A DNA stretch of 64,000 nucleotides from Candidatus Latescibacterota bacterium (GCA_965222075.1 OZ244937.1:2688001-2752000), one strand, 5' to 3'. Counted from the stretch's first letter, positions 9,808 to 62,313 are shown. The notes: generated from the sequence alone by a model not told the origin. Made by a program: numbers and translations.

Positions 9808-10047
9808 TGGACTTGACCCGATTTGGGTGGACACCCATCTTCTTGTTATCTTGTTGAGGAGAAAGGAGGTTCATCATGCCTCAGACGCATCCACCGTATC
9901 CGCCGGAGTTTCGGCCTGCCTGTGCGTGGCACGTAGCCAGGTGGCGCACCCCGCATACATGGACTTGACCCGATTTGGTAGACAACTTATCTCTTTTAGA
10001 GAAAAGAGTCCACAATGAAAAAATCATATCCAGCAGCATTTCGCTAG
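9808..10047 (+). mobile_element. Two tandem IS3-family left-end remnants
   Basis: TGGACTTGACCCGATTTGG at 9808 and 9960, each followed by a truncated OrfA start (MPQTHPPYPPEFR at 9876; MKKSYPAAFR-stop at 10015). Confidence 0.65.
9915..9941. repeat. CCTGCCTG-type micro-palindrome, copy 1 (27 bp)
   Basis: CCTGCCTGTGCGTGGCACGTAGCCAGG directly after IS3 OrfA codons ...PEFR. Confidence 0.75.
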
Positions 10048-10090
10048 AAACTGAATATGCTCAGACCTATCCACAACATTTCACAGAACG

Positions 10091-10642
10091 TCACTCGTAA
10101 CGAATAATCTGCTTAATGTCGCCGTGAGTCTGAGTTGGTCGTTCAGGCCCGTGAAATAATGTGGTCGCCAGTTTCGTAGAGTATCCTCGTTCGCCCCAAA
10201 TTGCCCAGATCAACGAGCAATCATTCTTTTTTAGGTAGTCCTGAAGCAGATTTTCTCGCATGAAGAATATATGCTGATAATTGTTATAGTCATCACCTTG
10301 ATCCGAGATACCAAGGGTTGCCCTAACGCCATCTGCTGTAAAAAAATCAAACTCTTGGGGACGGTTAATTAGATCAAGATCCTTTGCAATCTCCTTAGCT
10401 AACGTCACTGCGTGGCCTGCATCACTCGCCGCGCTTTGATACCCCTCCCACCCGAAATCACACACTGGAATTAACGCTTTAAATGTGGCAAATTCTTGCT
10501 CCATCTCTTCCTCTTCATAAGGAATTTCACGAACTTCGATCTTTGCCCAGTCATCATCCGTAAGTCGCTCATCTTCATTCTTATGAGGTTGAAAAAGGTG
10601 ATCAGGACACGTTAGATTATCCTTCAAATGGGTAACCCTCAA
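10091..10642 (-). pseudogene. C-terminal fragment of a large, probably NTPase-type, accessory protein
   Basis: Low GC; no good start; MRENLLQDYLKKNDCSLIWAIWGER resembles termini of large STAND/ATP-binding proteins (from memory). Confidence 0.4.
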
Positions 10643-10742
10643 AGAGGAGGATAATCATGGAAACGTTCGCCCTGCTCGAAGCAGTATTATACCGCTTTCG
10701 AGACCTGTTCGGTAGTCAAAACTTCGCGCTATTTTGTGCCTA

Positions 10743-10767
10743 CCTGCCTGTGCAGATGGCAGACAGG
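10743..10767. repeat. CCTGCCTG-type micro-palindrome, copy 2 (25 bp)
   Basis: CCTGCCTGTGCAGATGGCAGACAGG, non-coding. Confidence 0.75.
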
Positions 10768-10810
10768 TGTGGGGGGCGTGATAATCTGCAGTGGCCCTCA
10801 CACCGTCTCA

Positions 10811-11015
10811 GAAGCTGTCTTAAACCCCACGTCGGGCCGCTTTGCGGGGCTGTCGCCCTAGCGTCAAGCGATTCTCGAGGGCGAGACGCCCGCGTTCCAA
10901 GGGGTATTACGGCCTTGTACGACCATACCCTACCCCAACATGCGGGCGAGACGCCCGCGTTCCCGGGTGCTTTGATCCGCTTGAGGGACCCAACCCGGAA
11001 TTTTGAGACAGCTTC
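10811..11015. mobile_element. MITE with IS5-type ends (205 bp) carrying REP-like hairpins
   Basis: TIRs GAAGCTGTCTTAAA / TTTTGAGACAGCTTC with TCA on both flanks; two internal copies of GGGCGAGACGCCCGCGTTCC. Confidence 0.75.
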
Positions 11016-12055: not shown

Positions 12056-12101
12056 GGGATTGCACGGTGACCGGGGCATGGGGGCTCAACATAAAAAAAC
12101 A

Positions 12102-20923: not shown

Positions 20924-20943
20924 TGTGCTCCTTAGAAGCTGAT

Positions 20944-22557
20944 TTAAAACCCGACCTTTGCAAACCGCTTCCGTAAACGGCCGCGGACCAGGATCGCAGT
21001 CAGATTCAGGGCCAGAACAATAGCCACCAGCAGCAGCGTGGTCGTATAGACCATCGGCCGGGCCGCCTCCACGTTGGGCGACTGGAACCCCACATCGTAG
21101 ATGTGAAACCCTAAGTGCATAAACTTCCGGTCTAAGTGGAAAAACGGCCAGTGCCCGTCCAGCGGCAGCGACGGCGCCAGCTTGACCACCCCCGTAATCA
21201 TCAGTGGGGCCACCTCTCCCGCCCCGCGCGCGATCACCAGGATCATCCCCGTCAAAATGCCCGGTAGCGCGCCGGGTAGCAGCACACGCCAGATTGTCTG
21301 AAACTTCGTCGCCCCAAGCGCCAGCGACCCCTCCCGCACCTCGCCGGGCACGGCCGCCAGCGCCTCCTCTGCGGCCACAATCATCACCGGCACCGTCAAA
21401 AGCGCCAGGGTCAGCGACGCCCAGAAGATCCCCCCTGTGCCGAACGTCGGCGTCGGCAGCGCCTCCGGATAGAACAGCTGGTCGATGCTCCCCCCCACCC
21501 CGTATACGAAGAAACCGAGCCCGAACATCCCAAACACAATCGAAGGCACCCCTGCCAGATTGTTCACTGCAATCCGGACCACCCGCACCAGCGGCCCCTG
21601 CCTGGCGTACTCCCGCAGGTAAAGCGCCGCCAGTACCCCGAAGGGCACAGCCGCTAAGCTCATCAGAAACACCATCATCACCGTCCCGAAGATCGCCGGG
21701 AAAACTCCGCCCTCCGTGTTCGACTCCCTCGGCTCGTCCGCCAAGAACTCCCACACCCGGGAGAAGTAGACCTTCAGCTTCCCTGTCGTGCCCAGCCGGT
21801 TGGGACGGTAGGCCCGGACGATATCGGCCACGGCCACCCGCCGCACCTCCCCTCCGGCCAGGGCGACCTCCACCTGGTAGGTCTCACCCTCTGCACGCAG
21901 CCGGGACAGCTTCTGGGCCAGGCGCTCGTAGCGTGTCCAGTACTGCCGGTTCTCTTCGTCTAAGCGTTCGATCTCCGCCTCTCCGCGCCCGGCCAGTTCC
22001 AGCCTGCGCTTCTCCAACCGGAGTTGCTCGATCCGGCGGTTCAGGTTTCCGATGGCGTCCTCCTCGATCTCCCGGATCTGCGCCCGGATCCGTCCGGTCA
22101 CCCGCAGCCCCCCCTGCATGGCGGCCCACCCGACTTCAGGCCCCTCGGCCAGGATCTGCTCACCCTCGTACACCCCCCGGAGAAACCCGAACATCTGGCC
22201 CCATTCGCGCCGTTCAAAGATCACCGCATTGCGCGGGGTTTCACGCGCTTCAATCCGGTCCTCGTCGATCCACCGGAAATCGTCCCCGTACACATCCCGG
22301 TTGCCCACCTTGACCTGCGTTCGATATTCGGCCTGAGCCTTCCCGTCCTGCGTCGGGATCTCCTGCCGGTCCCACACCTGGCCCATCATAGCCGTTCCGT
22401 CCGCCAGGCCGAAGGCCACCAGATTGCCCGGCCAGAAAAACCCGAGCCCGTTGTAGACCACCACCCCCACCAAGCCCGCGACCATCAACAGACAGAAGGC
22501 AAGCGCCCCGCCGGTAAGCCAGATAAACGGCTCACCCGATCTCCAGAACCTGTTCAT
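20944..22557 (-). CDS. pstA: Phosphate ABC transporter permease PstA (long form)
   Basis: [38 protein letters not shown]; large periplasmic insert. Confidence 0.93.
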
Positions 22558-24824
22558 ATCCGACTGTACCTCTCCCGCAGCCGCTGCCGAACAATCTCGG
22601 CCGCGGTATTCACCAGAAACGTCACACCCGCCAGCAGCAGGCCGGTCAAAAACAGCACCCGGTAGAGCGTGCCCTCGTGGGGAGCCTCTGGAATCTCCAC
22701 TGCAATATTTGCCGACAGCGTACGCATCCCGTTGAAGATGCTCCAGTCCATAATCGGGGTATTCCCCGTCGCCATCAGCACAATCATCGTCTCCCCCACC
22801 GCCCGTCCAAAGCCGATCATCGCCGCTGAAAAGATCCCGGGGCTGGCCGTGGGCAGCACCACCCGCAGCGCCGTCTGCCAGGGCGTGGCCCCCAGCGCAA
22901 GCGACCCGCCCCGCAGGTGGGACGGCACGCTTGAAAGCGCATCCTCGCAGATCGTATAGATAATCGGCACCACCGCGAACCCCATCGCAAACCCCACCAC
23001 CAAGCAGTTGCGCTGATCGTAGCGGGTGTCCGACGTCTGCATCAGCCAGCGCTGGAAATTTCCGCCGAAAAGGGCGCGCTCCACCTCCGGTCCCAGCACA
23101 AAGGCGAGCCAGGCCGCCAGCGCCGTCACCGGCACCAGGAGATAGATCTCCCCCTGGTCGGGCAGCCAGCGCACGGCCCGCCTGGGAAGCCGTTTAAAGA
23201 CCCAGGCGGCCAGCACCACCACCGCCGGCACGGCCGGAAACAGGAGCAGCGCGCCCACGGCCCCCCGTTCCAGGAGGGGAGCCATCCAGAGCCCGGCCAA
23301 GAACCCTAAGATCACACTGGGCAGCGAAGCCATCAACTCCACCGTCGGCTTTACCGCGTTCCGGATCTCCGGACGAGCGAACTCCGACGTGTAGATAGCG
23401 GCCAGAACCGCTAAAGGCAGAGCGAACAGCATCGCATAAAACGTCCCCTTGGCCGTACCGAAGGCCAGCGGAACGATGCCCAGCTTCGGCTCGAATTCGT
23501 CCGTCCCGCCCGTGGACTGCCACACGTGCGCCGGTCCTTCATACCCCTCGTACCAGACCTCGCCGAAGAGCGTCTTCAGCGTCACCTCCGGGTGCGGATT
23601 GTGCAGGCGGTAGTGCACCAGCCGCCCGCCTCCGTCTAATCCCAAAAACCCGTCGGCCTTGGGGGCAAAGACCACTGCCGAAATTCCGGCCCCGCCCGCA
23701 GACATCCGGAAGAAGGTCTGTTCCGAAGTCATGTGGTGCAGCGCCAGGTTCCCCTCCGTATCCCCCGTCAAAAACTGTTTGTCCCGCTCGGACGGGGCGA
23801 TCGCCGTCACCGCCCCCTGGTGGGGCTCAAACGCGTGGATCTTTTGATATCCCTGAAAACCGGGACGCCCCGACTGCCGCACCGGAAACCAGGTGCTCAC
23901 CCGCCCCGCCCCATCTCCCACCGCCACCGACACATCCCCCAAGAGGAACTCAAGCGCCGTAATCGCCTGCCCTTCCTCAGCCGCCTGGAAGCGCTGCGTC
24001 CGCTGTGGACGCGTTGGGGGGTCGGAAACATCAAAGCGGAAGATCTCACCCCGGTCCGTCCCTGCCAGCACAGTCTGCCCGCGCCCGTCGGTCAACACCG
24101 CTGTCGGACGTCCCGCGATATCTTCCGTCAGATCGTATACAAACACCTCCCGTCTGCCGCCTCCCAGCAGCCCCCGCTTCTGCACAACCGCCGCGGTCAC
24201 CAGCCGCCCCGAAGCCGTGACCCCAACCACCGTCGCCCGCCTCGCCCCGTCGTTCCGGTAAGCCACCCTCACAACCGCCTCGCCCCCACCGTCCAGCCGG
24301 ACCTCCCCCTCAACGGACAGCTCCGGCGTCACGATTCGCTCGCCTCCCGTGTAGCCTACCGAAAAGGTCACCCGAGCCGCAACCACGCTCCCCTCGTCGG
24401 TTCCCAGCCCCAGGTACCCGTCCACAGGAGACCGGTAGACCGAAACGATCCGGCGTCCGGCAAGCGCCTCGGGCCGTTCCTGCCGGAGCACCGCCCCGCT
24501 TGCCAGATCGACAAAATCGATCCCCTCCGCACGCACCACGTAGCCCACCTCCCGATAGGGACCGGCGCCCACGGCCAGGGCCTGCCCGCCGCCGGAGGCG
24601 TCCCACGTCCCGACCGCTTCGGCCTCCGGACTCAGGAAAAGCGGATAGGCCTCCCGCAGCACAAACACAAAAATTCCCAGCACCACCGCAATCACCCCGA
24701 TCCCGCCCACCGCAATCACCCACCGCCCTACCCGGTCCATCAGCCGTGCGGTCGGCGTGATCCCCGGCAGCGACCGAATCTCTGCATTCAGATCGGTCTT
24801 CTCTTCAACGTCGGGATGTGCCAT
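22554..24824 (-). CDS. pstC: Phosphate ABC transporter permease PstC with periplasmic beta-propeller
   Basis: [38 protein letters not shown]; WD40-like repeats in the N-terminal half. Confidence 0.9.
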   Translation of the reverse strand: MAHPDVEEKTDLNAEIRSLPGITPTARLMDRVGRWVIAVGGIGVIAVVLGIFVFVLREAYPLFLSPEAEAVGTWDASGGGQALAVGAGPYREVGYVVRAEGIDFVDLASGAVLRQERPEALAGRRIVSVYRSPVDGYLGLGTDEGSVVAARVTFSVGYTGGERIVTPELSVEGEVRLDGGGEAVVRVAYRNDGARRATVVGVTASGRLVTAAVVQKRGLLGGGRREVFVYDLTEDIAGRPTAVLTDGRGQTVLAGTDRGEIFRFDVSDPPTRPQRTQRFQAAEEGQAITALEFLLGDVSVAVGDGAGRVSTWFPVRQSGRPGFQGYQKIHAFEPHQGAVTAIAPSERDKQFLTGDTEGNLALHHMTSEQTFFRMSAGGAGISAVVFAPKADGFLGLDGGGRLVHYRLHNPHPEVTLKTLFGEVWYEGYEGPAHVWQSTGGTDEFEPKLGIVPLAFGTAKGTFYAMLFALPLAVLAAIYTSEFARPEIRNAVKPTVELMASLPSVILGFLAGLWMAPLLERGAVGALLLFPAVPAVVVLAAWVFKRLPRRAVRWLPDQGEIYLLVPVTALAAWLAFVLGPEVERALFGGNFQRWLMQTSDTRYDQRNCLVVGFAMGFAVVPIIYTICEDALSSVPSHLRGGSLALGATPWQTALRVVLPTASPGIFSAAMIGFGRAVGETMIVLMATGNTPIMDWSIFNGMRTLSANIAVEIPEAPHEGTLYRVLFLTGLLLAGVTFLVNTAAEIVRQRLRERYSRI

Positions 24825-47595: not shown

Positions 47596-47611
47596 AATCT
47601 TAGAAGCCGTT

Positions 47612-48454: not shown

Positions 48455-48573
48455 CTTTATCCTTTCGTTTCAGGTGGTTTTGGACAACCTGAATTTGGAT
48501 AGATGAATACGCAATTTCAACTTTTTTCTTTACGCCTCTACCTTTTTAAAACAGCTTCTTAGAGTACAGACGA

Positions 48574-49095
48574 TTGAAACTCGACTCCTTGATAGATTTC
48601 GCCAACGAGGCGACTCAAGAAGTGGCCAAGTATACGGTTTCCGTGACGTTGTCTCCAGCGGAAATGTTAAAGGGCGGATATATCGTTTCGTCCCTTGCTT
48701 GGGACTCAATCAGTTACGGTGGGACAGAGATAGAGAAAGTTCCGAACGACAAACGAGGCGTTTATGCCTTTGCTATCTGTCAACAGAGTGCCGTGTTGCC
48801 GCCGCACGGATACATACTTTACATAGGAATTGCGGGGCGAAATTCGCAGCGTCCTCTCAGAGAACGTTATAGGGACTATCTCAACGAGAAGAAAGTTATC
48901 AGACGCGACAGAATCGCTCGAATGATCGGCACATGGCACAAAGTGCTGCGTTTTTTCTTCGCTCCCGTGGATGATGATGTTTCCTCCGATGAGCTTGTGG
49001 CACTTGAAAAGCAGCTTAATACTGCATTAATGCCGCCGTTTTCGGAAGGAGACCTTACGGCAGACATTAAGCGCAAACGGAAAGCATTTAGGTGA
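48574..49095 (+). CDS. GIY-YIG nuclease superfamily protein
   Basis: RGVYAF...ILYIGIA...LRERYRDY...LEKQL; GTGA overlap with the next gene. Confidence 0.7.
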   Translation: MKLDSLIDFANEATQEVAKYTVSVTLSPAEMLKGGYIVSSLAWDSISYGGTEIEKVPNDKRGVYAFAICQQSAVLPPHGYILYIGIAGRNSQRPLRERYRDYLNEKKVIRRDRIARMIGTWHKVLRFFFAPVDDDVSSDELVALEKQLNTALMPPFSEGDLTADIKRKRKAFR

Positions 49096-50348
49096 GAGAA
49101 AAAAAGCTTGAGGAGCTTATCCTGCCTGCCCTTCGTGGTTTGATGGGTGATTGGGTCTACTACTCCTGCCTGATGGATCTAGGAGAGTTGAGTTCAAGAG
49201 TCCATTACGCAGAGGAAATTCATGAGAGTAAGGCTCTCTCTGACATGATACAGCGACGGCTAAGAAAGGGCCGAAGTGCACAGATTGCAGAGTATCTAAA
49301 AACGCAGCCGGAGCGATTTTTTAACTCTCTCGTCGTTGCTACATACGGTGGACAACCCAACTGGTATGCATTATCGGATGTTCGGAATAAGACGCAAAGC
49401 GATGACCTCCGGAACTTGACTGAAGATACTGTTGCTTCGGTCGGATTTCTAACTCTTAGGGGAGACGAGAACCTTTTCGCGCTAGACGGGCAACACCGGC
49501 TCGCGGGTATCAAGAAGGCCCTCAAAGATGGACTGGAGCATGACCCTTACGATGTAGTATCCGTTATCTTTGTGGCTCACAACGTAGAGGAAGGCCTAGA
49601 GCGGACACGAAGGCTCTTTACAACACTGAACAAGACTGCTAGACCTGTATCAAAGGGCGACATCATTGCGCTGGACGAAGATGATGTCATGGCGATCTGT
49701 GTTCGCCGGCTTATCGAAGACACGGATCTGTTCGTAGGTGATCGCATAGCGTTCGTCGCAAGTAACAATATGCCAGTAACAAACACCACAAGCCTGACAA
49801 CGATTGGTAACTTGTATGATCTGCTAGCCGTCCTTTTCAGTCGCGCTGTCTCTAACCTAAAGCGTAGTAAGTCTAAGCTGCAGAAGACGCGTCCTGATGA
49901 CACAGAGTTGGAGGAGTACTTCAAGTATGCAAACGAACTGTTTGTTCAGTTAAAGGCACATTTTGAAGAGTTAGATAGATTCTTCTCTGCTGAGAAAACA
50001 GAAGATGTTGTGAGCGAGCTACGTAGTAGCCGCGGGGGTAACGCTCTGTTCCGCCCTATCGGCTTGGAGATTTTCGTTAGAATCATAGCACAGTTGACAA
50101 ACGACATGTCTCTGCCTGAGGCTGTGCAACACGCCGCTAAATTGCCAAGGAGTCTGAACGAAGCGCCATATAAAGGGCTTATGTGGGACGCAAGCAATAG
50201 AGCGATTCTAAACTCCCATAAGGTCACACTAAGGGAGACCCTCTTGTATATGCTTGGCAGGTCAGGATTTTCCGAAGAAGAGCTTCTAGAAAGGTATCGC
50301 AAAGAAACAGGTGACCAGTCATTAATGCTGCCTGCGAAGGTTGTATGA
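49092..50348 (+). CDS. DGQHR-domain (DndB-like, ParB superfamily) protein
   Basis: MIQR, FFNSLVV, LFALDGQHRLAGI, RRLFTTLNKTARPV. Confidence 0.88.
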   Translation: MREKKLEELILPALRGLMGDWVYYSCLMDLGELSSRVHYAEEIHESKALSDMIQRRLRKGRSAQIAEYLKTQPERFFNSLVVATYGGQPNWYALSDVRNKTQSDDLRNLTEDTVASVGFLTLRGDENLFALDGQHRLAGIKKALKDGLEHDPYDVVSVIFVAHNVEEGLERTRRLFTTLNKTARPVSKGDIIALDEDDVMAICVRRLIEDTDLFVGDRIAFVASNNMPVTNTTSLTTIGNLYDLLAVLFSRAVSNLKRSKSKLQKTRPDDTELEEYFKYANELFVQLKAHFEELDRFFSAEKTEDVVSELRSSRGGNALFRPIGLEIFVRIIAQLTNDMSLPEAVQHAAKLPRSLNEAPYKGLMWDASNRAILNSHKVTLRETLLYMLGRSGFSEEELLERYRKETGDQSLMLPAKVV

Positions 50349-50366
50349 ACTTAGGAAGTTTGCATT

Positions 50367-52037
50367 TTGAGTGTAGCCATGAGGGATACAAGACCGCCAA
50401 CAGGATTCTACGGCAGTAGTCCCGGACAGGATCTGACTGAGATTGTGTATCGCCTGAGCGCGGATGAGTTACACGCAGTATTGGGAGAAGATCTCATCTC
50501 ACTTATCGAAGCGCTTGCTAGTCCTGAGGACAGAGACGCGACGCTGCGGAGAATAGCGACTGATATACTGCACGACCGGGCGGACGATCTAATGGCGCGC
50601 AGTGAAATCCGCGAAATCTGCTTGAATTCCACGTCGCTTGATAAGCTAGGGGAGTTAGCGAGCCGATTAGGCGTTGCGAATGTCGATGCGGTTCGTGCCA
50701 TGGACCCAACTCAGGATGCCAGAACTTGGCAAGCCTTTCTCGGATTCTTCGGGATCGACACACGCGGCGCGGCTCCTTTCGCAATGGAACCCGAGCAAGA
50801 AGTCGTTCGGCCCGAGTTTGGCCTGTTCCCGCATCAGCGGCGCGTGGCCGACCGTGTCTGTGAAGCCATTCAGAGTGGTCACGGACGGGTTGTTCTCCAC
50901 TTGCCAACCGGTGCTGGTAAGACTAGAACAGCGATGCACGTCGTTAGCCGGTTTATGACTGCCTCGGAGCCGTCCGTTGTTGTTTGGTTAGCCGCTAGTG
51001 CGGAGCTACTCGATCAAGCGGCCGATGCTTTCCAAAACGCTTGGGCGCGGCTTGGCAATCGGGAGATCGACATCCTGCGTTTTTGGGGAGATTATACACC
51101 GGACCTGTCTAGGACTTCGGATGGCCTAATAATCGCCGGACTACAAAAAATGCATGCGCTTAAGACCAGGGACCACATCGGCGTCTTGCGGCTCGCGAAG
51201 TCAGTCAAGCTCGTTGTCGTCGACGAGGCCCATCAGGCAGTTGCGCCGACCTATCGCAAAATAATCGACATCTTAGTTGAAACCGGTAGGAACAATGCTC
51301 TTGTGGGTTTGACTGCCACACCGGGTCGTACATGGTCGGATATTGCTGCCGATAAGCGGCTCTCGGATTTCTTTGGGGAACGGAAGGTCATGCTCGAAGT
51401 CGAAGGCTGGGACGATCCGGTTTCTTTTCTCATCAATCAGGGCTACTTAGCACGGCCGACCTTTCGATGTCTTGAGGTCGAAGCGACGTCTGAACATAAA
51501 CAGCGTTTGAACAAGGAAGGCGCAGGCGACGATTACGATCCAGCGCTGCTGGAATCGCTCGCGGAGCAAGTAGGTCGAAACGTTATCATTATTGATGAGA
51601 TACGCCGTTTGGTAGAAGAGGGGCATAGACGGATAATATTATTCGGTGCGTCGGTACGGCATGCCGAGCTCTTAGCGGCAGCACTGTCAGCTATTGGAAT
51701 CAATGGGCGTGTTGTAACTAGCAACACGGGAGAGACTGTCCGTGCGCGAATTATCAAAGAGTTTCGAGGGCCTTCCACAAAGCCCATGGTTCTGTGTAAC
51801 TTCGGCGTTCTGACGATGGGATTTGACGCGCCGAACACAAGCGCAGGAGTGATTGCCCGGCCAACAAAGTCACTCGTGTTGTTCAGCCAAATGGTAGGTC
51901 GCGCGATACGAGGACCTATGGCAGGCGGAAACAAAACCTGCACTATTTCCACTGTCGTTGACATCGATTTACCTGGCTTCGGCAACGTGGCCGAGGCGTT
52001 TACTAATTGGGAGGACGTGTGGCATGACCCGCACTAA
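50367..52037 (+). CDS. SF2 DEAH-box helicase
   Basis: LFPHQ, LPTGAGKT, VVDEAHQ, LTATPGR, LTMGFDAP, QMVGRAIRG. Confidence 0.9.
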   Translation: MSVAMRDTRPPTGFYGSSPGQDLTEIVYRLSADELHAVLGEDLISLIEALASPEDRDATLRRIATDILHDRADDLMARSEIREICLNSTSLDKLGELASRLGVANVDAVRAMDPTQDARTWQAFLGFFGIDTRGAAPFAMEPEQEVVRPEFGLFPHQRRVADRVCEAIQSGHGRVVLHLPTGAGKTRTAMHVVSRFMTASEPSVVVWLAASAELLDQAADAFQNAWARLGNREIDILRFWGDYTPDLSRTSDGLIIAGLQKMHALKTRDHIGVLRLAKSVKLVVVDEAHQAVAPTYRKIIDILVETGRNNALVGLTATPGRTWSDIAADKRLSDFFGERKVMLEVEGWDDPVSFLINQGYLARPTFRCLEVEATSEHKQRLNKEGAGDDYDPALLESLAEQVGRNVIIIDEIRRLVEEGHRRIILFGASVRHAELLAAALSAIGINGRVVTSNTGETVRARIIKEFRGPSTKPMVLCNFGVLTMGFDAPNTSAGVIARPTKSLVLFSQMVGRAIRGPMAGGNKTCTISTVVDIDLPGFGNVAEAFTNWEDVWHDPH

Positions 52038-53880
52038 AAACCCTGAACAAGGAGAGCTGTTCGACGCCCAGATCATTCCTCTGCGTCTCGCAATAACAGC
52101 AATGCGTGATTCGGGGTATAAGAACACAGCTTATGCGCTCGCCGAGTTGATCGATAACGCTGTGCAAGCAGAGGCCTCCAGGATCGAGGTACTCTGTATC
52201 GAGAAGCGGGAGACCGTCCGGACTCGGGAACGCAGAAGCCTTTACAAGATTGCAGTTCTTGACAATGGATCGGGCATGGACTCACAGACGCTGAGAATGG
52301 CGCTCCAATTTGGAAACGGGACACACCTAAACGATCGAACGGGTATCGGCCGCTTCGGTATGGGACTGCCCAATGCATCAATCTCTCAAGCTGCAAAGGT
52401 GGACGTTTGGAGTTGGCGAAACGGGTCAGACAACGCGGTCAAGACGTTCATTGACATTGATGAGATCCAGGCCGGAAACATGCATGAAGTTCCACATCCG
52501 GAGCACGATCCTGTTCCCAAAGAATGGCGCGTGTTGTCCGACCACATCGGGCAAAGTGGAACATTGGTGGTTTGGTCGGACCTAGATTCGAGCAGGCTGA
52601 CTTGGAAGAGCGCGAAGCATACCTTTTACAATATGGAACGGATCGTCGGCCGAATTTATCGGCGCTTCATCATCAACCAGTCAGTGACGATCCGCCTTTT
52701 TGCTGCGGAGAACGATAGTGAGCACGTGCTAATTGATCGAAAGGCAGCCTTCAACGATCCACTTTACCTTAATATTCCTCCTTCAATGCCGCCACCGTTC
52801 AACGCGAAACCCATGTTCGAGCACGTGTTCGATGATCCTTATGAGATTGAGCATGATGGCAAAAAGAACACTGTACAGGTCCGCTATTCAGTGGCTACGC
52901 AGGATACGGTCGACGAGGCAGGTACTCAGCAACGAGGCGATACCAAGTACGGCAAGGATGCACGAAACAACATCGGTGTCTCTGTGCTCCGCGCGGGCCG
53001 GGAGATTATGCTTGATCCGGGATGGTGTATAGGATATGACCCAAGAGAACGCTGGTGGGGTGCTGAAGTGGAGTTTCCACCGAATCTAGATGAGATATTC
53101 GGTCTCACAAACAATAAGCAGGCGGCTACCCATTTTACGGAGTTGGCCACAACGGAATGGGAGCGACTCGCAGAAGAGGGCGAGGAGTTTATTGATGTGG
53201 TGAAACGGCTCAAGGAGGATGGAGACCCACGTGGTTGGCTGCTTAGCCTGAGCGACAGTATTAAGCGAAACCTCGAACAGCTACGTCTGATGATCAGGGC
53301 GCAGGGGGCGGGACGGCGGTCTACGAGCAGGATGCGTCACGATGCCCCCGATGATGTTACGAAGACCGTCAATGAAGCGTGGAAGGAGCGCTCTAAGGAA
53401 CGACCCCTCGAAGGAGAGGATACGTCGCCGACAGAAAATGACTTGGATGACATTCGCACCGATCTTACTGAAAATAAGAAATATAGTGCGTCCGAAGCCG
53501 AGACACTTGCTTCTCTGATAAGAGATGCAGATTTAAAGGTAGTCTTTCTGGAAGCGGACTTTCCGGACCCCTTCCACCTGTTCAACGTGGAGATAAAGGG
53601 AAACACGACAGAGATAACCTTTAACAGGAAGCATCCGGCCTTCGACGACATCTTTGGAACCATCGCAACCGTTGATGAGGACGTGAGCGGACTCTCTAAA
53701 GGAGAGGTGATCGAACGCCTGACGAGGGCGGTGAATGCCACCAAGATTGTCTTTTCAGCTTGGGCACGTTACGAGCGTGAAGCAGGCGTGGACCGCGCTA
53801 AGGCCCTGCAGAAGGTACGTTTCGATTGGGGACAAATGGCGGCGAATTTCTTACAAACAGGCGACGATTTCGCACTGTAA
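52024..53880 (+). CDS. GHKL (MORC/MutL-like) ATPase
   Basis: MRDSGY, ELIDNAVQA, DNGSGM, GRFGMGL, GTLV; overlaps the end of the helicase gene. Confidence 0.85.
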   Translation: MTRTKNPEQGELFDAQIIPLRLAITAMRDSGYKNTAYALAELIDNAVQAEASRIEVLCIEKRETVRTRERRSLYKIAVLDNGSGMDSQTLRMALQFGNGTHLNDRTGIGRFGMGLPNASISQAAKVDVWSWRNGSDNAVKTFIDIDEIQAGNMHEVPHPEHDPVPKEWRVLSDHIGQSGTLVVWSDLDSSRLTWKSAKHTFYNMERIVGRIYRRFIINQSVTIRLFAAENDSEHVLIDRKAAFNDPLYLNIPPSMPPPFNAKPMFEHVFDDPYEIEHDGKKNTVQVRYSVATQDTVDEAGTQQRGDTKYGKDARNNIGVSVLRAGREIMLDPGWCIGYDPRERWWGAEVEFPPNLDEIFGLTNNKQAATHFTELATTEWERLAEEGEEFIDVVKRLKEDGDPRGWLLSLSDSIKRNLEQLRLMIRAQGAGRRSTSRMRHDAPDDVTKTVNEAWKERSKERPLEGEDTSPTENDLDDIRTDLTENKKYSASEAETLASLIRDADLKVVFLEADFPDPFHLFNVEIKGNTTEITFNRKHPAFDDIFGTIATVDEDVSGLSKGEVIERLTRAVNATKIVFSAWARYEREAGVDRAKALQKVRFDWGQMAANFLQTGDDFAL

Positions 53881-53900
53881 CGCGATGGAGGCCGAAGCTC

Positions 53901-54812
53901 ATGATCGCGGACGGCGAACGCTTGAAGGCTCTCTTACAAGAAGCAGAGCGACGAGTTATCTTGTGTGCACCTTTTATTAAGGCGAGGGTCTTACAGACCG
54001 TTCTGTCGGTCGTGTCAGCAGCAGTGCCGGTACGCATCGTTACAAGATGGCAGCCGACCGAAATCGCGGCGGGCGTCAGCGATTTGGAAGTATTGGAGGT
54101 AGCGAACAATCGGCCGAACACCAAACTTGAGCTTTTAGACGACCTCCACGCCAAGCTTTACCTCGCCGACGACCATTGTCTCGTAGGGTCGGCCAACTTA
54201 ACCGGTAGCGCATTAGGCTGGTCGGAACGAAGCAATGTAGAGCTTCTGGTGCCAGCCCAGCCGACCGATTCCGATGTAGCCTTTCTCTTGAAACGGCTCG
54301 AGTCAGCGACGCGGGCGACCTTTACAAAACGCTTAGAAATGGAAGTGGCTGCCGCCGCTTTTGACATTACCGGGCTCGATGAGGGGCAGGAAATGACGGA
54401 GACCGGCGATACGCGTCGATTGGCTTGGCTACCTCGTTGCGCGGCACCGGACAAGCTCTACGAAATATACCAGAATCCGAAGACAACGGTCGTGGTCGAG
54501 GACACGAAAGAAGATGGTCTTGCCGATCTACGGGATCTACTGGTCCGCCGCGGACTGTCACTAACGGACTTCAATGCCATCGTACGAGATACGCTTCTGT
54601 TGATGCCGACGTTCGCTCGTATCATCGATAAGGTGCCGCAAGGCATCACAGATGCCAGTGGCGTTGGTCTTGTCGAGGATGCCCGTCCAGATTTGGTGGG
54701 ACAGGATGCGCGGGTACAGTGGCGCATCATTCGAGATTGGATTGGAGTCTTTTTCCGAGACCAGTTTGAGGTGGCACCGGATTCATTTGTTACCCGTCTG
54801 CGGCCCCCCTGA
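53901..54812 (+). CDS. Phospholipase D-family (single HKD) nuclease-like protein
   Basis: CAPFIK, LHAKLYLAD (HxKxxxxD), VGSANLT, NVEL; GGAGG before ATG 53901. Confidence 0.85.
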   Translation: MIADGERLKALLQEAERRVILCAPFIKARVLQTVLSVVSAAVPVRIVTRWQPTEIAAGVSDLEVLEVANNRPNTKLELLDDLHAKLYLADDHCLVGSANLTGSALGWSERSNVELLVPAQPTDSDVAFLLKRLESATRATFTKRLEMEVAAAAFDITGLDEGQEMTETGDTRRLAWLPRCAAPDKLYEIYQNPKTTVVVEDTKEDGLADLRDLLVRRGLSLTDFNAIVRDTLLLMPTFARIIDKVPQGITDASGVGLVEDARPDLVGQDARVQWRIIRDWIGVFFRDQFEVAPDSFVTRLRPP

Positions 54813-55004
54813 GCAGGCGATGCCAGCATCATTGCAATCCGCCGGATCGTGCAGGTCAGCGTGGAATCAACGTGCATCGTCGCGGACTCGACCCGAATCG
54901 ATTGTGATCAAGTCGGACAGCCATTGATCCATATTGTTTCTGCTCATCTTCACTGTCCCGACACGGCGAATCACGATCATCGGCGTGCGCTGGAAGATGT
55001 ACTA

Positions 55005-56480
55005 GAGGGTCGGACAAAATTTTAATAGCTGAAAACGCGTAAGATAGCAAAAGGGGACGGAACGCCTCTTCGATTGTGGGATTTAAAGAGTACCCAACTC
55101 AACCCACAGAGAGGAGGTGTTCAAGATCGCCCCGTCTCCTTCAACGTTTGAAGCAGAAGAGACGTTCCAACCGCCGTCGTATTTTCACCAGGATGAGGTC
55201 GCAAAAGATTACACAGCATTTTTTGCCGATTTGGATTTTTCTCCCCTGCCTGCTCTTAGACGAGAAGGCAGAGGCCGTCGGGGTCACCCCCAGAGCGCTT
55301 ACGTCAAAGCGTTGTTGGTCAAAATTAGAGAGAAGCACACCTATTGCACAGATTTACGTGCGTTTCTGGTCAAACATCCGGCCCTGGTTCTGCTGCTGGG
55401 ATTTCGCCCCAAGGTATGTGAGCAATCTCCCTTTGGGTTTGATGTTTCCAAAACGGTCCCGACCGCTCGACATCTACGACGGAAACTCCAGACAATTCCC
55501 AATTTGGCTCTCCAATCGATCTTTGAGGGAACCGTCCGAGACCTGAAAGCGGAAGTGCCACATCTGGGGCAACGCACAGCGTTGGACAACAAACACATCT
55601 ACGCCTTTGTCAAGCAGAATAACCATAAGACCTATGTGAAGGACCGCTTCAATCCCAACTGTCAACCCAAGGGAGACCCTGACTGTCGCCTAAGTGCCAA
55701 GCAGGTCTCCAACCAAGAGCCAGAAAAGCAGCACAAAACCGCAGAAAAGGAGTATCTGTGGGGATATGGCACCTCGGTGGTGGCCACCAAACATCGCATC
55801 TTGGGTGAGTTTGTCCTGGCCGAACACACCGAGCCCTTCAACGTTCGAGATGTCGAATTCTTCTCCATGTTGATGCCAAGGGTTGAAGCACGCCTCGGCT
55901 TCCGTCCCAAGCACTTTGCCGCAGATGCCGCCTACGATGCCTGGTATGTCTACGACTACTTTGCAAAAGTTGGCGGAACGGCCTACATTCCGCTCAACCT
56001 GCGTGGACATCCAATGCCTCGTCTTGGAAGCAATGGGTTTCACATTTGTCAAGACAACCGGGAAATGATCGGCTCTTATACCTATCAGGATCGCACCCGA
56101 GGCTATCAGGCTCAAAAGGAGGTCTGTCCCATCCTCTTTGGCAACCTGCCTGCTACCCAGACCTGTCGGATCAATCATCCACAGTTCCAAAAGGGATGCG
56201 GATGTGTCAAATATAAAAACCTGGAACTGGGCGCTCAGGCACGGCTCTTACTGGATCGCTCTTCAAGGGTTTTCAAGCTTGGCTATGCCTGGCGAACCAC
56301 TACCGAGCGCATCTTTTCTCAGGCCAAGGAACTGGGCATTGAGCGACCTCGCCTGAGAAACCTGAACTCCATACGCAACCACAACACCTTGATCTACATC
56401 GTGATCAACGTCAATGCCCTAAAACGCGTACGTGAAGCTAAACAACGCAAAATTACGGGCTTGTAATTTGTCCGGCCCTC
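55005..56480 (+). mobile_element. Insertion sequence with DDE transposase (IS1182/IS4-like), 1476 bp
   Basis: TIRs GAGGGTCGGACAAA / TTTGTCCGGCCCTC; 7 bp target duplication TGTACTA. Confidence 0.88.
55117..56466 (+). CDS. DDE transposase
   Basis: ALDNKHI, ADAAYD, RTTTERIFSQAKE; lies between the TIRs. Confidence 0.88.
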   Translation: MFKIAPSPSTFEAEETFQPPSYFHQDEVAKDYTAFFADLDFSPLPALRREGRGRRGHPQSAYVKALLVKIREKHTYCTDLRAFLVKHPALVLLLGFRPKVCEQSPFGFDVSKTVPTARHLRRKLQTIPNLALQSIFEGTVRDLKAEVPHLGQRTALDNKHIYAFVKQNNHKTYVKDRFNPNCQPKGDPDCRLSAKQVSNQEPEKQHKTAEKEYLWGYGTSVVATKHRILGEFVLAEHTEPFNVRDVEFFSMLMPRVEARLGFRPKHFAADAAYDAWYVYDYFAKVGGTAYIPLNLRGHPMPRLGSNGFHICQDNREMIGSYTYQDRTRGYQAQKEVCPILFGNLPATQTCRINHPQFQKGCGCVKYKNLELGAQARLLLDRSSRVFKLGYAWRTTTERIFSQAKELGIERPRLRNLNSIRNHNTLIYIVINVNALKRVREAKQRKITGL

Positions 56481-56551
56481 TGTACTACGAAGTCAAAACG
56501 TCACAATCCATGGAGCAACGGCGTAGTTTGGAAACCGGGAAACGAACCAAT

Positions 56552-58003
56552 ATGGGAATACGCATCCAACCACGTGAAATCGAAGTGCCCGAGGACGATC
56601 CGTTCAAAAACGACCTTCTCGGCCGGAAGGAGCCAGTGAAGATTCTCACCCACCTCGTTGGTGCTCTCGAAGGTCCATGCGTCCTGGCAGTCGATGCCGC
56701 ATGGGGAACCGGCAAGACCACGTTTCTCCGGATGTGGGCGCAGCACCTGCGCAACCAAGGATTTCCTGTTGTCGAGTTCAATGCATGGGAGACCGACTTC
56801 TCCGGGGACCCCTTCGTCGCTCTCTCCACAGAATTGACAGAAGGTCTCCACGAATACACGGACGAACCGCTGGCGACGAAGATCGCCGAGACGAAGAAGG
56901 GGGCGAAGGAGGTTCTTCGACGAGCCGTTCCAGGCCTGATTCGACTCGCAACCGCAGGCATCCTGGATCTCGCCCCGCTAATGGAAAAGGAAGTGGGCCA
57001 AGCTCTTGCGTCCTACGCCGAGGACAGGCTGTCCGAATACCAGGAGGCGCAGAAGTCGGTCAAGGCATTCAGGCATGTCCTGCAAGACATGGCGAAGACG
57101 TTGGCGCAATCCAGAGAGAACCGATCCCTGATCGTAGTCATTGATGAGCTGGACCGGTGCCGCCCTTCTTATGCTGTCGAACTGCTTGAAGTCGCCAAGC
57201 ACCTGTTTTCAGTGGACTACATTGTTTTTGTATTGGCGGTTAATCGCCCTGAACTCGCACATTCGATCAAAGCCCTGTATGGAAGCGGTTTTGACGCCGC
57301 GGGATATTTCCGCCGGTTCTTTGATATGGACTTTCGACTTCCCGATCCTGAACGGAAAGCTTTTATCGACGCAGCGCTCGATGCGATACAGATCGATGAA
57401 TACTTTGGGCGAACTCAAGATGGGTCCGCACGATACGACTATGAAGACGTTCGGAAACTGTTACAGGGTTTTTTTCGTGCACCTGACCTCAGCCTTCGAC
57501 GGATAGCGCAAGCCATCTATCGTCTGGGGCTGGTATTGGCGTCGTTGGGCAGCAACCAGCAGTCGTTCGCCACGAGGGCAGTTGTGGCTTTGATCCTTCG
57601 AACCATCGACGCGGATCTCTATCATCGGTTCCACTGCGGTGAGGCCTCGGACCTTGAAGTCGTTGACAAGGTGTTCACACCATCCGGAGCAATAACTCTT
57701 GAAGAAGAGGAAGTAAGATCCTTTTTTGAGAAAACGATCATTCTCGCTGCTCGCGATGTGTCAGGTTTGACTGACTCGCCGCTGTTGCAGCGGTACCAGA
57801 AGCTGGTTGATGCCGAAGAGTCAGACCCCTCCTCACACAACCCGGATCGAAAGCGCGGGGAGAAAATCATCGAATGGGCTGAGCATATCCGTCAGGGAGG
57901 CCTCGGCAGACCCATTGGATTCCGGCATTCAGTTCAGCGGATTGAATTGCTATCCCCTGATCTCATTGGCGAGCGCTCAGGAACGGTTTCGCATAATTTT
58001 TGA
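56552..58003 (+). CDS. KAP-family P-loop NTPase
   Basis: DLLGR, DAAWGTGKT, FNAWETD, VVIDELDRCRP, YFRRFFD. Confidence 0.9.
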   Translation: MGIRIQPREIEVPEDDPFKNDLLGRKEPVKILTHLVGALEGPCVLAVDAAWGTGKTTFLRMWAQHLRNQGFPVVEFNAWETDFSGDPFVALSTELTEGLHEYTDEPLATKIAETKKGAKEVLRRAVPGLIRLATAGILDLAPLMEKEVGQALASYAEDRLSEYQEAQKSVKAFRHVLQDMAKTLAQSRENRSLIVVIDELDRCRPSYAVELLEVAKHLFSVDYIVFVLAVNRPELAHSIKALYGSGFDAAGYFRRFFDMDFRLPDPERKAFIDAALDAIQIDEYFGRTQDGSARYDYEDVRKLLQGFFRAPDLSLRRIAQAIYRLGLVLASLGSNQQSFATRAVVALILRTIDADLYHRFHCGEASDLEVVDKVFTPSGAITLEEEEVRSFFEKTIILAARDVSGLTDSPLLQRYQKLVDAEESDPSSHNPDRKRGEKIIEWAEHIRQGGLGRPIGFRHSVQRIELLSPDLIGERSGTVSHNF

Positions 58004-59473: not shown

Positions 59474-59652
59474 GGAAATGGGAAAACAGGTGCCAGCCGC
59501 GTGATCCAAAGCGTCCGGGATGGAGGCTGGGGACTCCTGAAGGATCCGGGTTTGGCGGGCATGCCCCGGACAGCATGGGGATGCCCTTTTCCATTTAGAG
59601 TTTTCATTATGCCCTGTGCGCTTTGCGCGATGCCCTCCCCGGAGAGCAAACC

Positions 59653-61959
59653 ATGACCGACTTCTACGACCACAACCAGGTCCTCCATCTCGTCCGCCAC
59701 GGCGTCACAGTCAACACCTCCGACGCCTACACCCTCTGGATCTGGGCCAAAGAGGGCAGCCACATCCGGACGACCTTTGCGGGCCGTACGTTTCCACCAA
59801 CCCATACCCGCAGCCGGTCCGGTCTCTTCACCTGGGCCAGGGCCGGCCGGGTCAATCTGGAAAAGGGCCTGCATATCCGGATCGACCTTAAAGCCGACAA
59901 AGCCGCAGACCCGTCCCCGGTCAGCGCCGTCGCCCTCTCCTCCAGCAGGAACTTCAACCCGGCCCGCAGTTTCGAGGTCTCCCGCGTCTTCCACACAGAA
60001 CCCGATCCCCTGCCGGACGCCCGTCTGGCCGAATCTCGCCACGTGCATACCCCCTGGACCCTGCGCACCTATCCGACCCTTGAGAAATGGGAAGCCAGAG
60101 CCGCCCACATCCGGCAACACATCCTCGTCGCCCTGGGCCTCTATCCACTCCCGGAAAAGACACTGCTCAAACCCCGGATCAGCGGCCGTATCGAACGCGA
60201 GGGGTACACCGTCGAAAAGGCCTACTTTGAATCCCTCCCCGGATTCTTCGTCTGCGGTAACCTCTACCGGCCCCTCGGCCAAAAAGGGTCCACCCCCGGC
60301 ATCGTCTGTCCGCATGGCCACTGGAAAACCGGCCGCCTTGAAAACTCGGACCTGGGATCGATCCCCGGCCGCTGCATCAACCTCGCCCGCCAGGGGCACG
60401 CCGTCTTCTCTTACGACATGGTCGGCTACAACGACAGCGACCAGATCGTCCACCGGAGCTTCGGCGGTCTTGTGGAGGACCTCTGGGGCATCGGCGTGAT
60501 GGGCCTCCAGCTCTGGAACGCCATCCGGGCGGTTGACTTCCTCTGCTCCCTGGACGGTGTGGACCCCGACCGCATCGGCTGCACCGGCGCCTCCGGCGGC
60601 GGCACCCAGACCTTCATGCTCACCGCCGTGGACGATCGTGTAAAGGTCGCTGCTCCCGTCAACATGGTCTCCGCCCACATGCAGGGCGGATGCAACTGCG
60701 AAAACCAGGGCGGCCTCCGCTTAGAGGTCAACAACGTCGAAATCGCCTCGATCATGGCCCCCCGGCCCCTCTTCCTCGTCTCCGCGTCGGGCGATTGGAC
60801 CGCCAACACCCCGGAACTCGAATACCCCGCGATTAAAGACATCTACCGCCTCTACAACGCCGAAGATAAGGTCGCGGCCGCACAGGTAGATGCCCCCCAC
60901 AACTACAACAGGGAAAGCCGCGAACACATCTACGCCTGGTTCGGCAAATGGCTGCTGGGCATCCACGATCCCAAACGCTTCCGCGAACGGGGCTTCGCTG
61001 CCGAAAAAGACGGCGACCTCCTCGTCTTCCACAATCGCAAACGCCCCGCCTACGCCTTAGACGCCGGCGGGCTGACCCGCGCCCTCATCGCTCGCTCCGA
61101 GGCCCGGCTCAACGCACTCAGACCTGAGGACCGCACGTCCCTTCTCCGCTTCAAGAAAAAGATGGGGGCTGCGTTCAAACACGCCATCTCGGCGGACTGC
61201 CCGGATACGCTTTCCGTCCGGGACATGGGCCGTACCAAACGTGATGCGTACATCATCCGGCGCCTCCTGCTCGGCCGGCAGGGCCACGGAGATCGCATCC
61301 CGGCGCTCCTGTTCACTCCCCGCACCCGCAGGAAAAGATCCCCCGCGACCCTCGTCGTCCATCCCGAGGGCAAGGCCGCCTTGGCCGATCTTTGTATCCC
61401 CGGCCCCATCATCTCCGACCTCCTGAAACACGGCCACCTCGTCCTGGCGATCGACACCTTCCTCACCGGGGAGTTCCACTCCTCCTTTGGCCAGCCGGCG
61501 CGCAACACCGATGTCCCCCACTTTACCACCTACAACCCGACCGACGCTGCCTGCCGGGTGCAGGACATTCTCACCGCCCTGGCCTACCTTCGATCGCATT
61601 CCGAAGCGAAAACCTGCAACCTGCTCGGCCTCGGTGCCGCCGGCCCCTGGTGCCTCCTGGCCCGCGCCCTGGCCCCCAACGTCGCCCGCACCGCCGTTGA
61701 CCTCAACCGCTTCGCAGCCGACAGCGACGCCCGCTGGGTCGCAGACCTCTTCATCCCCGGCATCCGAAGCGCGGGCGACTTCCGGACCGCCTGCGCATTG
61801 ATCGCGCCCGGCCGCCTCCTGATCCACAACACAGGCAAGCGTTTCCCACTCGACCGGCTCCAGGCTGCCTACCGGGCCGCCGGTGTGAAAGACGCGCTCC
61901 GGATCTCGGAACAGCGGCTAAACAGGTCGGACATCCTCAGCTGGCTGCTTGGAAAATAA
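59653..61959 (+). CDS. Acetylxylan esterase-like alpha/beta hydrolase with duplicated domain
   Basis: FESLPG..VCGNLYRP, CPHGHW, YDMVGY, GCTGASGGGTQT, GGCNCE, HNY. Confidence 0.8.
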   Translation: MTDFYDHNQVLHLVRHGVTVNTSDAYTLWIWAKEGSHIRTTFAGRTFPPTHTRSRSGLFTWARAGRVNLEKGLHIRIDLKADKAADPSPVSAVALSSSRNFNPARSFEVSRVFHTEPDPLPDARLAESRHVHTPWTLRTYPTLEKWEARAAHIRQHILVALGLYPLPEKTLLKPRISGRIEREGYTVEKAYFESLPGFFVCGNLYRPLGQKGSTPGIVCPHGHWKTGRLENSDLGSIPGRCINLARQGHAVFSYDMVGYNDSDQIVHRSFGGLVEDLWGIGVMGLQLWNAIRAVDFLCSLDGVDPDRIGCTGASGGGTQTFMLTAVDDRVKVAAPVNMVSAHMQGGCNCENQGGLRLEVNNVEIASIMAPRPLFLVSASGDWTANTPELEYPAIKDIYRLYNAEDKVAAAQVDAPHNYNRESREHIYAWFGKWLLGIHDPKRFRERGFAAEKDGDLLVFHNRKRPAYALDAGGLTRALIARSEARLNALRPEDRTSLLRFKKKMGAAFKHAISADCPDTLSVRDMGRTKRDAYIIRRLLLGRQGHGDRIPALLFTPRTRRKRSPATLVVHPEGKAALADLCIPGPIISDLLKHGHLVLAIDTFLTGEFHSSFGQPARNTDVPHFTTYNPTDAACRVQDILTALAYLRSHSEAKTCNLLGLGAAGPWCLLARALAPNVARTAVDLNRFAADSDARWVADLFIPGIRSAGDFRTACALIAPGRLLIHNTGKRFPLDRLQAAYRAAGVKDALRISEQRLNRSDILSWLLGK

Positions 61960-61966
61960 GAGCGGA

Positions 61967-61991
61967 CCTGTCTGCCGGCGGCACAGGCAGG
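61967..61991. repeat. Micro-palindrome copy 7 (25 bp, intergenic, inverted)
   Basis: CCTGTCTGCCGGCGGCACAGGCAGG. Confidence 0.75.
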
Positions 61992-62100
61992 TCGGCCCGG
62001 GCCCTTCGGGCTTCAAGTAGCACAAACTGTCAGTTTGTGTGAGGGTAAGGGAGGGGATTTGGAGGCAGGTTGCATGATCACCGCCCCTTGCCACCATTCC

Positions 62101-62313
62101 GTTCTTTTGCTTTTGGCCTTTTTCTTGCACGCCCAAGAAAAAGGCCGAAAAAGAAGGGCGCCGCTCAAACGCCGCGGGGGCTGCTTTTCCGCGAATTGCC
62201 CCTGGGGTGGAAGCGAGAGCCGTGCCGGGCACGGCACAGGCAGGTCTGCCCTGCGAGCGCTTGGGGATTCACGCGGCGAAGGCGGTGGACGGAAACGCGC
62301 GGAAAAGCCCCTT
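62101..62313. repeat. Second copy of the long palindromic repeat, with micro-palindrome insert at 62221-62244 (copy 8)
   Basis: Aligns with 40696-40885 apart from an extra CGTGCCGGGCACGGCACAGGCAGG. Confidence 0.85.

Follow-up and report, generated by a model that had tools for sequence, protein, structure and literature searches.

A 64,000-nucleotide (nt) stretch of the genome of Candidatus Latescibacterota bacterium (GCA_965222075.1 OZ244937.1:2688001-2752000), here called the window and numbered throughout from its first base, carries eight copies of a short, hairpin-forming palindromic repeat. We consider it probable that this repeat belongs to a family of non-autonomous, single-hairpin mobile elements of 24–39 nt, moved in trans by an enzyme that may act on single-stranded DNA through an HUH-type mechanism. 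That the elements are mobile DNA moved in trans is very likely; the assignment of the mobilising enzyme to the HUH type, made by analogy with known systems, is tentative, with odds somewhat below even.

On the canonical strand, each unit consists of the 8-nt arm CCTGYCTG, a 2-nt bulge (CG/GC), a variable but perfect stem-loop and the arm CAGGCAGG, giving a total length of 24–39 nt. In type 1 copies Y is T, which produces a G·T wobble on the canonical strand and a C·A mismatch on the opposite strand; in type 2 copies Y is C. An initial annotation of the window had proposed eight copies, and all eight sequences were verified, with lengths of 27, 25, 27, 27, 33, 27, 25 and 24 nt; the eighth is a partial copy whose start had to be revised (see below). 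The strict pattern of that annotation matched five of the eight copies and returned no match in any of 100 dinucleotide shuffles. With up to two mismatches allowed, the scan found all eight copies and four weak, non-palindromic rows (21597, 55245, 55678 and 56145), and yielded 24 rows in total against 0–6 rows in 20 block shuffles of the window. A covariance model (R1) was constructed exclusively from 70 copies outside the window's genome; searched against the window with filters off, it recovered the seven intact copies with E-values from 6.5e-7 to 0.18, and the next site had an E-value of at least 3.2. The copies are dispersed at irregular distances; regularly spaced arrays like those of CRISPR repeats are absent.

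Four of the copies lie within credible open reading frames (ORFs), and alignment with homologous proteins shows that all four are insertions. A 27-nt type 1 copy (48216–48242, minus strand; R1 E=6.5e-7) is located in frame in the DUF4096 domain of a 280-residue IS5-family transposase (47612–48454, minus strand) and adds the peptide LSACDAQAG. Two further 27-nt copies are in frame in an ORF encoding a C-terminal fragment of an IS701-like (DDE_Tnp_1/PF13546) transposase (26482–26958, minus strand). One of these is of type 1 (26773–26799, minus strand; E=9.2e-7) and adds PVCVHRTGR, while the other is a variant (26559–26585; E=0.18) whose strand is ambiguous, scoring 16.7 and 16.5 bits on the two strands. 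The fourth, a 33-nt type 2 copy (46054–46086, plus strand; E=7e-6), lies in frame in sspC (43232–46777, plus strand), which encodes the ATPase of the Ssp DNA phosphorothioation system; it adds 11 residues and changes a Q to H.

The sites of these copies are mostly empty in homologues. Of 120 IS5 homologues listed, 15 were aligned, and the site is empty in 10 of them, comprising 6 of the 11 proteins with at least 87% identity and all four of the more distant ones; the best homologue (P0001, 271 residues) is missing exactly the nine inserted residues. The SspC site is empty in 37 of 40 aligned homologues, and both sites of the IS701-like fragment are empty in 29 of 30. Exact removal of the copies had been noted in the initial annotation to restore sensible protein sequence. 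The four peptides quoted in support were reproduced and occur naturally in homologues; in SspC, for example, P0122 reads the predicted peptide. Where the SspC site is filled, the insert is identical (P0121), a variant (P0123) or an insert with a second nine-residue unit nested inside it (P0124).

Comparison of nearly identical transposases showed that insertion is recent and ongoing in the lineage of the window. Among the 11 IS5 proteins of at least 87% identity, at least seven insertion events are distributed over six sites. One of these events is nested, and another is a 25-nt copy that shifts the frame close to the 3′ end of the gene. A protein 98% identical to the IS701-like fragment of the window (P0241) has seven in-frame inserts of 12, 9, 9, 11, 11, 9 and 9 residues relative to P0244, 70 residues in sum, and P0243 has two. 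Transposase genes of 87–98% identity differ by the presence or absence of copies at six or more sites. Because the inserted peptides derive from all three frames of both orientations, no particular peptide is selected.

The remaining copies of the window are non-coding. Two are 25 nt long, and so not a multiple of three: one at 10743–10767 (minus strand; E=0.0042) and one at 61967–61991 (plus strand; E=0.0039), 7 nt past the stop codon of an esterase-like ORF (59623–61959). A 27-nt copy with a degenerate right arm (9915–9941, minus strand; E=0.021) is situated in repeat-rich DNA between small toxin–antitoxin-like ORFs and an Avs2-like remnant ORF. It had been counted as a fifth copy within a reading frame, but no credible frame or protein family was found around it, and the region shares with the end of the IS701-like gene only a short motif coding for GLDP(I/T)W. 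The eighth copy (plus strand) matches, in 26 of 26 bases, the 3′ part of a 33-nt copy present at two loci of other genomes (L029 and L030). It is therefore a 5′-truncated unit, 26 nt of the 33-nt form, and its start shifts to 62219 (62219–62244). Relative to a paralogous repeat at 40.7 kb, in which the site is empty (~40809/40817), it represents an insertion of 23–26 nt. The repeat that surrounds it belongs to a second dispersed family of ~115–230 nt with a palindromic core of 36–42 nt, represented at 40696–40918, 62101–62350 and 26423–26464; the two long copies, of which the one at 62 kb carries the truncated hairpin, are 96% identical over 114 nt, and the third is short and inverted.

The units insert with exact ends. 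At four loci of other genomes (L025, L079, L068 and L090) one copy is nested in another, and once the inner one is taken out, what is left is precisely a unit of 27 or 30 nt that is also found intact at other loci. Two of these loci, L025 (144–200) and L079 (~985–1045), share a 57-nt composite in which a 30-nt copy sits inside a 27-nt one; the two composites differ by a single base. They belong to different genomes and their flanks are unlike, so that composites may move as units. A triple nest is found in L090, at the same position of the outer copy. Besides other copies of the element, the targets include genes, intergenic DNA and tandem heptamer repeats. In L087 (~270–360), the hairpin lies within tandem 7-mers and forms with them a 27-residue insertion in TsaD; in L100, it lies within tandem 8-mers.

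Insertion without duplicated bases, as proposed in the initial annotation, was confirmed for the window copies, none of which is flanked by a duplication, and for the family at large. Flank repeats measure 4 nt or less in 112 of 120 copies, as in shuffled pairs, and a target duplication was rejected. Repeats of 6 nt or more flank six copies (~0.7 expected from shuffles), the tandem-repeat sites L087 and L100 among them. In the lineage of the window, an A stands directly 5′ of the canonical strand at each of the seven intact window copies and at all five further IS5 events that were read against the DNA of the window, and the base on the 3′ side is mostly T. Elsewhere, read in the orientation of the search pattern, the commonest junctions of the 120 copies are G^C (40), G^T (21), G^G (13), A^C (11), C^C (10) and A^T (8). 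Position −1 of type 1 copies elsewhere is G or A in 65 of 80 cases, and the preference amounts to a single base per side.

A single scan of a collection of species-representative genomes, using a pattern derived from the window copies, gave 130 matches (94 distinct sequences) at no fewer than 122 loci, of which 120 copies were analysed for their flanks. The loci listed carry the taxon labels Latescibacterota, Planctomycetota (including anammox genera), Verrucomicrobiota, Lentisphaeria, Kiritimatiellota, Bacteroidota, Desulfobacterota, Chloroflexota, Methylomirabilota, Nitrospinota, Nitrospirota, Acidobacteriota, Zetaproteobacteria, other Proteobacteria, Patescibacteria and more; neither a cyanobacterial nor an archaeal label was found among them. 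One 27-mer is identical at eight of the listed loci with very different taxon labels, and copies occur in both AT-rich and GC-rich flanks. The window itself matches L075 at 90.6% identity over 233 nt, and its homologous transposases are labelled Latescibacterota. Plasmids of cultured bacteria yielded one convincing match, at an unannotated spot of Sulfuricystis pSTJ1, and the phages scanned yielded none. Copies are present in complete chromosomes (Latescibacterota OZ241917.1, OZ244744.1 and OZ240239.1 among them), a finished plasmid, an isolate draft (L043, a non-palindromic and possibly chance match) and independent projects.

In these genomes the copies are not confined to foreign DNA. The initial annotation saw none in core housekeeping genes, which holds within the window; in the wider family, in-frame copies occur in DnaE, as a 12-residue gap against the solved structure of Pol III alpha, and in TsaD, as described above. 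Other genes with in-frame copies encode a polyprenyl synthase, a TPR protein, an fn3-repeat protein and a sensor kinase. The sensor-kinase copy occupies the same site in two species with one base different, as does the copy of a zetaproteobacterial pair. Such sharing at orthologous sites (species pairs L028/L116 and L016/L113) indicates that some copies are old and inherited. Most copies lie between ordinary chromosomal genes, and transposase or integrase domains were detected in only 3 of 142 neighbouring ORFs, the others with a domain match being mostly ordinary chromosomal genes, so that a preference for foreign DNA, one of two suggestions made initially, was not seen beyond the window. The other, persistence where selection is weak, fits better. 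When long open frames were defined by at least 60 open codons on both sides, they contained 22% of 58 elements against 45% of 560 control positions from the same loci, an approximately twofold depletion, yet copies in genes are frequent.

The hairpin architecture is well preserved across the family. The bulge is confined to one arm in nearly all copies, which means that a strand asymmetry is kept across phyla, and perfect palindromes account for 3 of the 94 distinct sequences among the matches listed, even though the search pattern permitted them. Seven window copies were folded on both strands, and the canonical strand folded better in six; for the exception, the variant at 26559, the other strand was slightly better. 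Model R1 placed the copies at 48216, 26773, 10743 and 9915 on the minus strand and those at 46054 and 61967 on the plus strand, in agreement with the canonical reading, and left 26559 undecided. The variant also carries a compensated change in its outer stem (CTTG.../...CAAG). In the family at large, pairing in the outer helix is uninformative, because the search pattern itself dictated it. The inner helix is 88.7% paired on the 70-sequence alignment, with both-sided changes at all four pairs; few covariation events were counted, because much of the change reflects the split between type 1 and type 2.

A further property of the family is its length. Among the matches listed, 101 of 130, or 73 of the 94 distinct sequences, have lengths divisible by three, in agreement with the bias expected in the initial annotation. 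The length classes are built in different ways, from an inner stem of 4 and a loop of 3, a stem of 5 and a loop of 4, or a stem of 7 and a loop of 3 or 6, and type 2 forms a series with 12, 15, 18 or 21 inner bases. Hairpin geometry offers no reason for multiples of three, and selection on length is therefore indicated. Most family members are also free of stop codons in every frame. Owing to these two properties, the element can survive inside ORFs as an insertion of 8–13 residues. We infer that the lengths reflect selection among element lineages for coding-tolerant forms: lineages that keep the frame would have many more tolerable sites and would come to dominate the pool that supplies all new copies, non-coding ones included, which would generate the excess. 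The 25-nt subfamily of the window's lineage is found only in non-coding DNA (10743 and 61967) and, as a frameshifting copy, at the extreme 3′ end of the IS5 gene.

Taken as mobile elements, the copies could move as follows. The hairpin would fold in single-stranded DNA, where a trans-acting enzyme with specificity for sequence and structure would cut it at the foot of the stem; the same enzyme would then join the hairpin into a single-stranded target. The best candidate for this enzyme would be a Y1 transposase of the HUH class, akin to those of IS200/IS605 and RAYT, with its gene located elsewhere. Like the present units, elements of the IS200/IS605 group lack the terminal inverted repeats of DDE-type elements and make no target duplication; their Y1 HUH enzyme recognises hairpins in single-stranded DNA. 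They have two different subterminal hairpins and a target of 4–5 nt, with the target base or bases 5′ of the insertion; compared with miniature derivatives of such elements, the present family has a single hairpin and a preference at position −1 only. The proposal, made from the window alone, of an ultra-small mobile element that adds 9–11 residues without a target duplication has gained support from the empty sites, the length bias, the exact nested ends, the independent assemblies and the species pairs.

Several observations weigh against this interpretation or parts of it. A search of the window for a Y1/HUH gene found none. Likewise, Pfam searches of 92 spanning and 142 neighbouring ORFs at 120 loci revealed no Y1 transposase, and an all-against-all comparison of 1010 ORFs beside the loci revealed no recurrent protein family. 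The tetranucleotides GTAG and CGTC were sought at the ends and in the flanks of 120 copies and not found. The preferred flanking bases vary between lineages. Positions −1 and +1 form complementary pairs in 50 copies against 49.7 in shuffles, and nothing was seen further out; since the two bases do not covary, the flanks do not simply extend the stem, and a palindromic target was rejected. For the collection as a whole, ~100–500 chance matches to the pattern were estimated. Five loci (L034, L043, L088, L101 and L111) have no inner hairpin and are possibly such matches, while the remaining loci share the architecture; most loci come from metagenome bins.

Frame selection as the cause of the length bias is indirect and unproven. 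The fraction of multiples of three is 23/26 at non-coding-like, 15/19 at ambiguous and 9/13 at ORF-like sites, the last class including chance ORFs of GC-rich genomes. The bias thus holds in non-coding contexts too and is a property of the family, not specific to coding DNA. The rule originally drawn from the window, that coding copies are multiples of three and non-coding copies are not, fails for the family; locally, the 25-nt subfamily of the window's lineage fits it. Stop-containing frames number 25 of 564, against 31.2±4.8 after shuffling with the fixed arms kept. This difference is not significant; base composition suffices, and a selected depletion of stop codons was rejected.

Two genes close to copies deserve mention with regard to the enzyme. 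An ORF of 183 residues at ~10091–10642 (minus strand), between the first two window copies, was considered as a candidate and rejected, as its resemblance to Avs2, confined to the C-terminal part of that protein, is no more than weak (E=1.4e-5 in NCBIfam and 3.7e-6 in PADLOC); it is probably the remnant of a defence gene. The one HUH match at the loci, an IS91-family Y2_Tnp gene in L071 (974–2026, minus strand), carries a hairpin copy nine codons ahead of its stop; this is probably just another insertion into a transposase.

Among the alternative explanations, the one that survives best, although we judge it unlikely, is that the copies are ordinary repetitive extragenic palindromic (REP) sequences of a REP/RAYT (REPtron) system, served in each genome by a cognate TnpAREP gene at another location. 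REPs typically flank the RAYT gene and lie predominantly outside genes. REPs and the present units alike are GC-rich, bulged and imperfect palindromes, of 20–40 nt in REPs and 24–39 nt here, occurring in many copies and inserted with no target duplication; most copies in other genomes also lie between ordinary chromosomal genes, as this explanation would have it. According to one study, TnpAREP recognises a bulged imperfect palindrome as a single-stranded hairpin, and the bulge matters for the enzyme (PMC8266576). Another places some REPs within genes, replication and repair genes included, and describes a conserved GTAG or CGTC tetranucleotide at one end (PMC3733652). In the present family, this tag is absent from both ends and from the flanks, and the conserved part is the stem itself. 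The same 8-bp stem recurs under the labels of many phyla, with identical 27-mers at eight loci of very different taxon labels, whereas a span of several species is reported for only some REP families (PMC3733652). Moreover, copies nest in one another and reach seven in one ORF, their lengths favour multiples of three, and no RAYT gene was found in the window or among the ORFs at the loci.

A site-specific serine or tyrosine recombinase, acting through a tiny circular or hairpin intermediate with crossover at a short shared core such as GC, is improbable in our view. It would account for the lack of a target duplication and for G^C being the commonest junction outside the window's lineage (40/120). 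At a G^C junction the flanking G and C are identical to the element's final and initial base, which leaves the boundary uncertain by one base at either end, as it would be after crossover at a 2-nt core. In the lineage of the window, however, every one of the 12 events read has an A^T or A^N junction, and the joined ends of the element contain no such dinucleotide. A duplex circle of 27 nt is, in addition, sterically implausible, and the sole integrase detected is a partial phage-type gene in L064, one of the 142 neighbouring ORFs.

Marginally less probable still is a motif that functions for the host, in protein binding, RNA stability or termination, or as a replication or repair signal, and is kept by selection or gene conversion. 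Its conservation across phyla, AT-rich genomes included, the many copies between ordinary genes, the orthologous copies kept in the species pairs L028/L116 and L016/L113 and the compensated stem change at 26559 are all in keeping with such a role, and some copies may be functional for the host. As a general explanation it is contradicted by presence/absence polymorphism and nesting in nearly identical transposase genes, by the occurrence of both orientations and all three codon phases inside genes, and by the lack of the motif from most homologues. Rfam, searched at gathering thresholds, also returned no family match anywhere in the window.

We regard it as very improbable that the copies are footprints or solo terminal inverted repeats of a larger DDE transposon or of a MITE (miniature inverted-repeat transposable element). 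The arms do form an inverted repeat, and insertion sequence (IS) genes are the hosts of three of the window's four coding copies. Against this, no target duplication is present, no longer element in the window is bounded by the arms, and other CCTGCCTG sites have no partner. The centre is a hairpin of conserved architecture with compensated changes and not random filler, removal of nested copies restores exact units, and the two kinds of host element, IS5 and IS701-like, are unrelated at their ends. Artefacts of sequencing, libraries or assembly are hardly credible even with most records being metagenome bins, as the units differ internally in sequence and length, copies are present in complete chromosomes, a finished plasmid and independent projects, orthologous copies differ by one base between species, and the element is not known to match any sequencing adapter.

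If the elements are mobile DNA as proposed, several known systems offer parallels beyond the REPs. The small dispersed repeats (SDRs) of Nostocaceae, described by Elhai and colleagues in 2008, are reportedly hairpin-shaped, occur nested within other repeats and accompany tandem heptamer repeats; the copies of L087 and L100 within tandem 7- and 8-mers recall this association. SDRs are dispersed repeats of ~20–27 nt that are regarded as mobile in papers that cite their description, and one source reports them as absent outside Nostocaceae (PMC5861425). The present family shares with them the very small size and the signs of mobility (empty sites, nesting and polymorphism), with units that reach 39 nt. 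It is found under many other taxon labels, with no cyanobacterial label among the 122 or more loci, and is compared with SDRs here through their descriptions.

Rickettsia palindromic elements (RPEs) are ~100–150 bp long and confined to Rickettsia. Like the present family, they are palindromic repeats inserted in frame within unrelated genes and read in several frames; the present units, of 24–39 nt, are widespread and their host is not Rickettsia. Fusion of palindromic repeats in frame to unrelated protein genes, read in different frames, is described in two papers (PMC3184786, PMC2267715), as are small repeats inside coding sequences; the second also mentions the small 'Cod-2' repeat. By analogy, then, the family appears to behave like REPs and the SDRs of Nostocaceae and to colonise genes like RPEs. 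Mobile GC-rich hairpin clusters of fungal and other mitochondria are likewise tiny palindromes that spread within a genome, sometimes in coding regions, by an equally obscure mechanism; they are organellar and unrelated in sequence to the present family. A search of the full-text literature, with subscription journals outside its scope, found no description of the motif or of such a cross-phylum family.

The surroundings of the host genes show further rearrangements. The truncated IS701-like fragment is flanked by an 83-nt direct duplication (25856–25938 and 26923–27000, 95–98% identical), and its 158-residue ORF takes its first codons from the duplicated 5′ end of a phosphate-binding-protein gene. 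The sspC gene is part of a defence island (41036–58003) that encodes an SspA-like desulfurase, SspB, SspC and SspD (PADLOC E-values down to 0), followed by a DndB-like gene, a PbeA-like helicase, an MzaB-like ATPase, a PLD nuclease, a DDE transposase ORF and a PDC-S20/KAP NTPase; the IS5 element interrupts the island after sspD. Repeats of 23–55 nt that match the end of this IS5 element (47598–47620) are scattered between genes in both orientations (5851–5873, 5966–6023, 10806–10828, 20930–20952 and 62412–62478) and resemble solo ends or small IS derivatives. Elsewhere in the window, a 794-residue ORF (2835–5219, minus strand) combines apolipoprotein N-acyltransferase (LNT_N, CN_hydrolase) and TatC domains, and is either a fusion or a pair of genes read through in frame. 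In two ORFs for phosphate-transporter permeases, of 537 and 756 residues (20944–24824, minus strand), the permease domain (BPD_transp_1) takes up only the C-terminal part and is preceded by long N-terminal extensions.

The 8-bp stem is conserved under the labels of more than a dozen phyla among the matches listed. A broader proposal, to which we give slightly less than even chances, is that the family constitutes a class of transposable elements that has so far gone undescribed, is spread across bacteria and comprises the smallest such elements known; their enzyme would travel between phyla, and their lengths would have been shaped to multiples of three for life inside coding genes. If the elements are mobile as proposed, ~27 nt and one hairpin would suffice for mobility, and the family would provide a very simple substrate for finding and studying the enzyme. 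The excess of multiples of three would be a rare case of selection apparently acting on the length of a selfish element, and the identical 27-mers in distant phyla, AT-rich genomes included, pose a question of transfer or constraint. The hairpins mark recent insertion polymorphism in uncultured lineages, and they could confound gene calling, protein clustering and strain-level assembly. They would also explain insertions of 9–12 residues (LSAC.AQAG, PVCV..TGR, CLRA.RRQ) that are otherwise taken as alignment noise or annotation error. Under the broader proposal, the family would represent a general and ongoing source of insertions of 8–13 residues in bacterial proteins, the essential DnaE and TsaD included.

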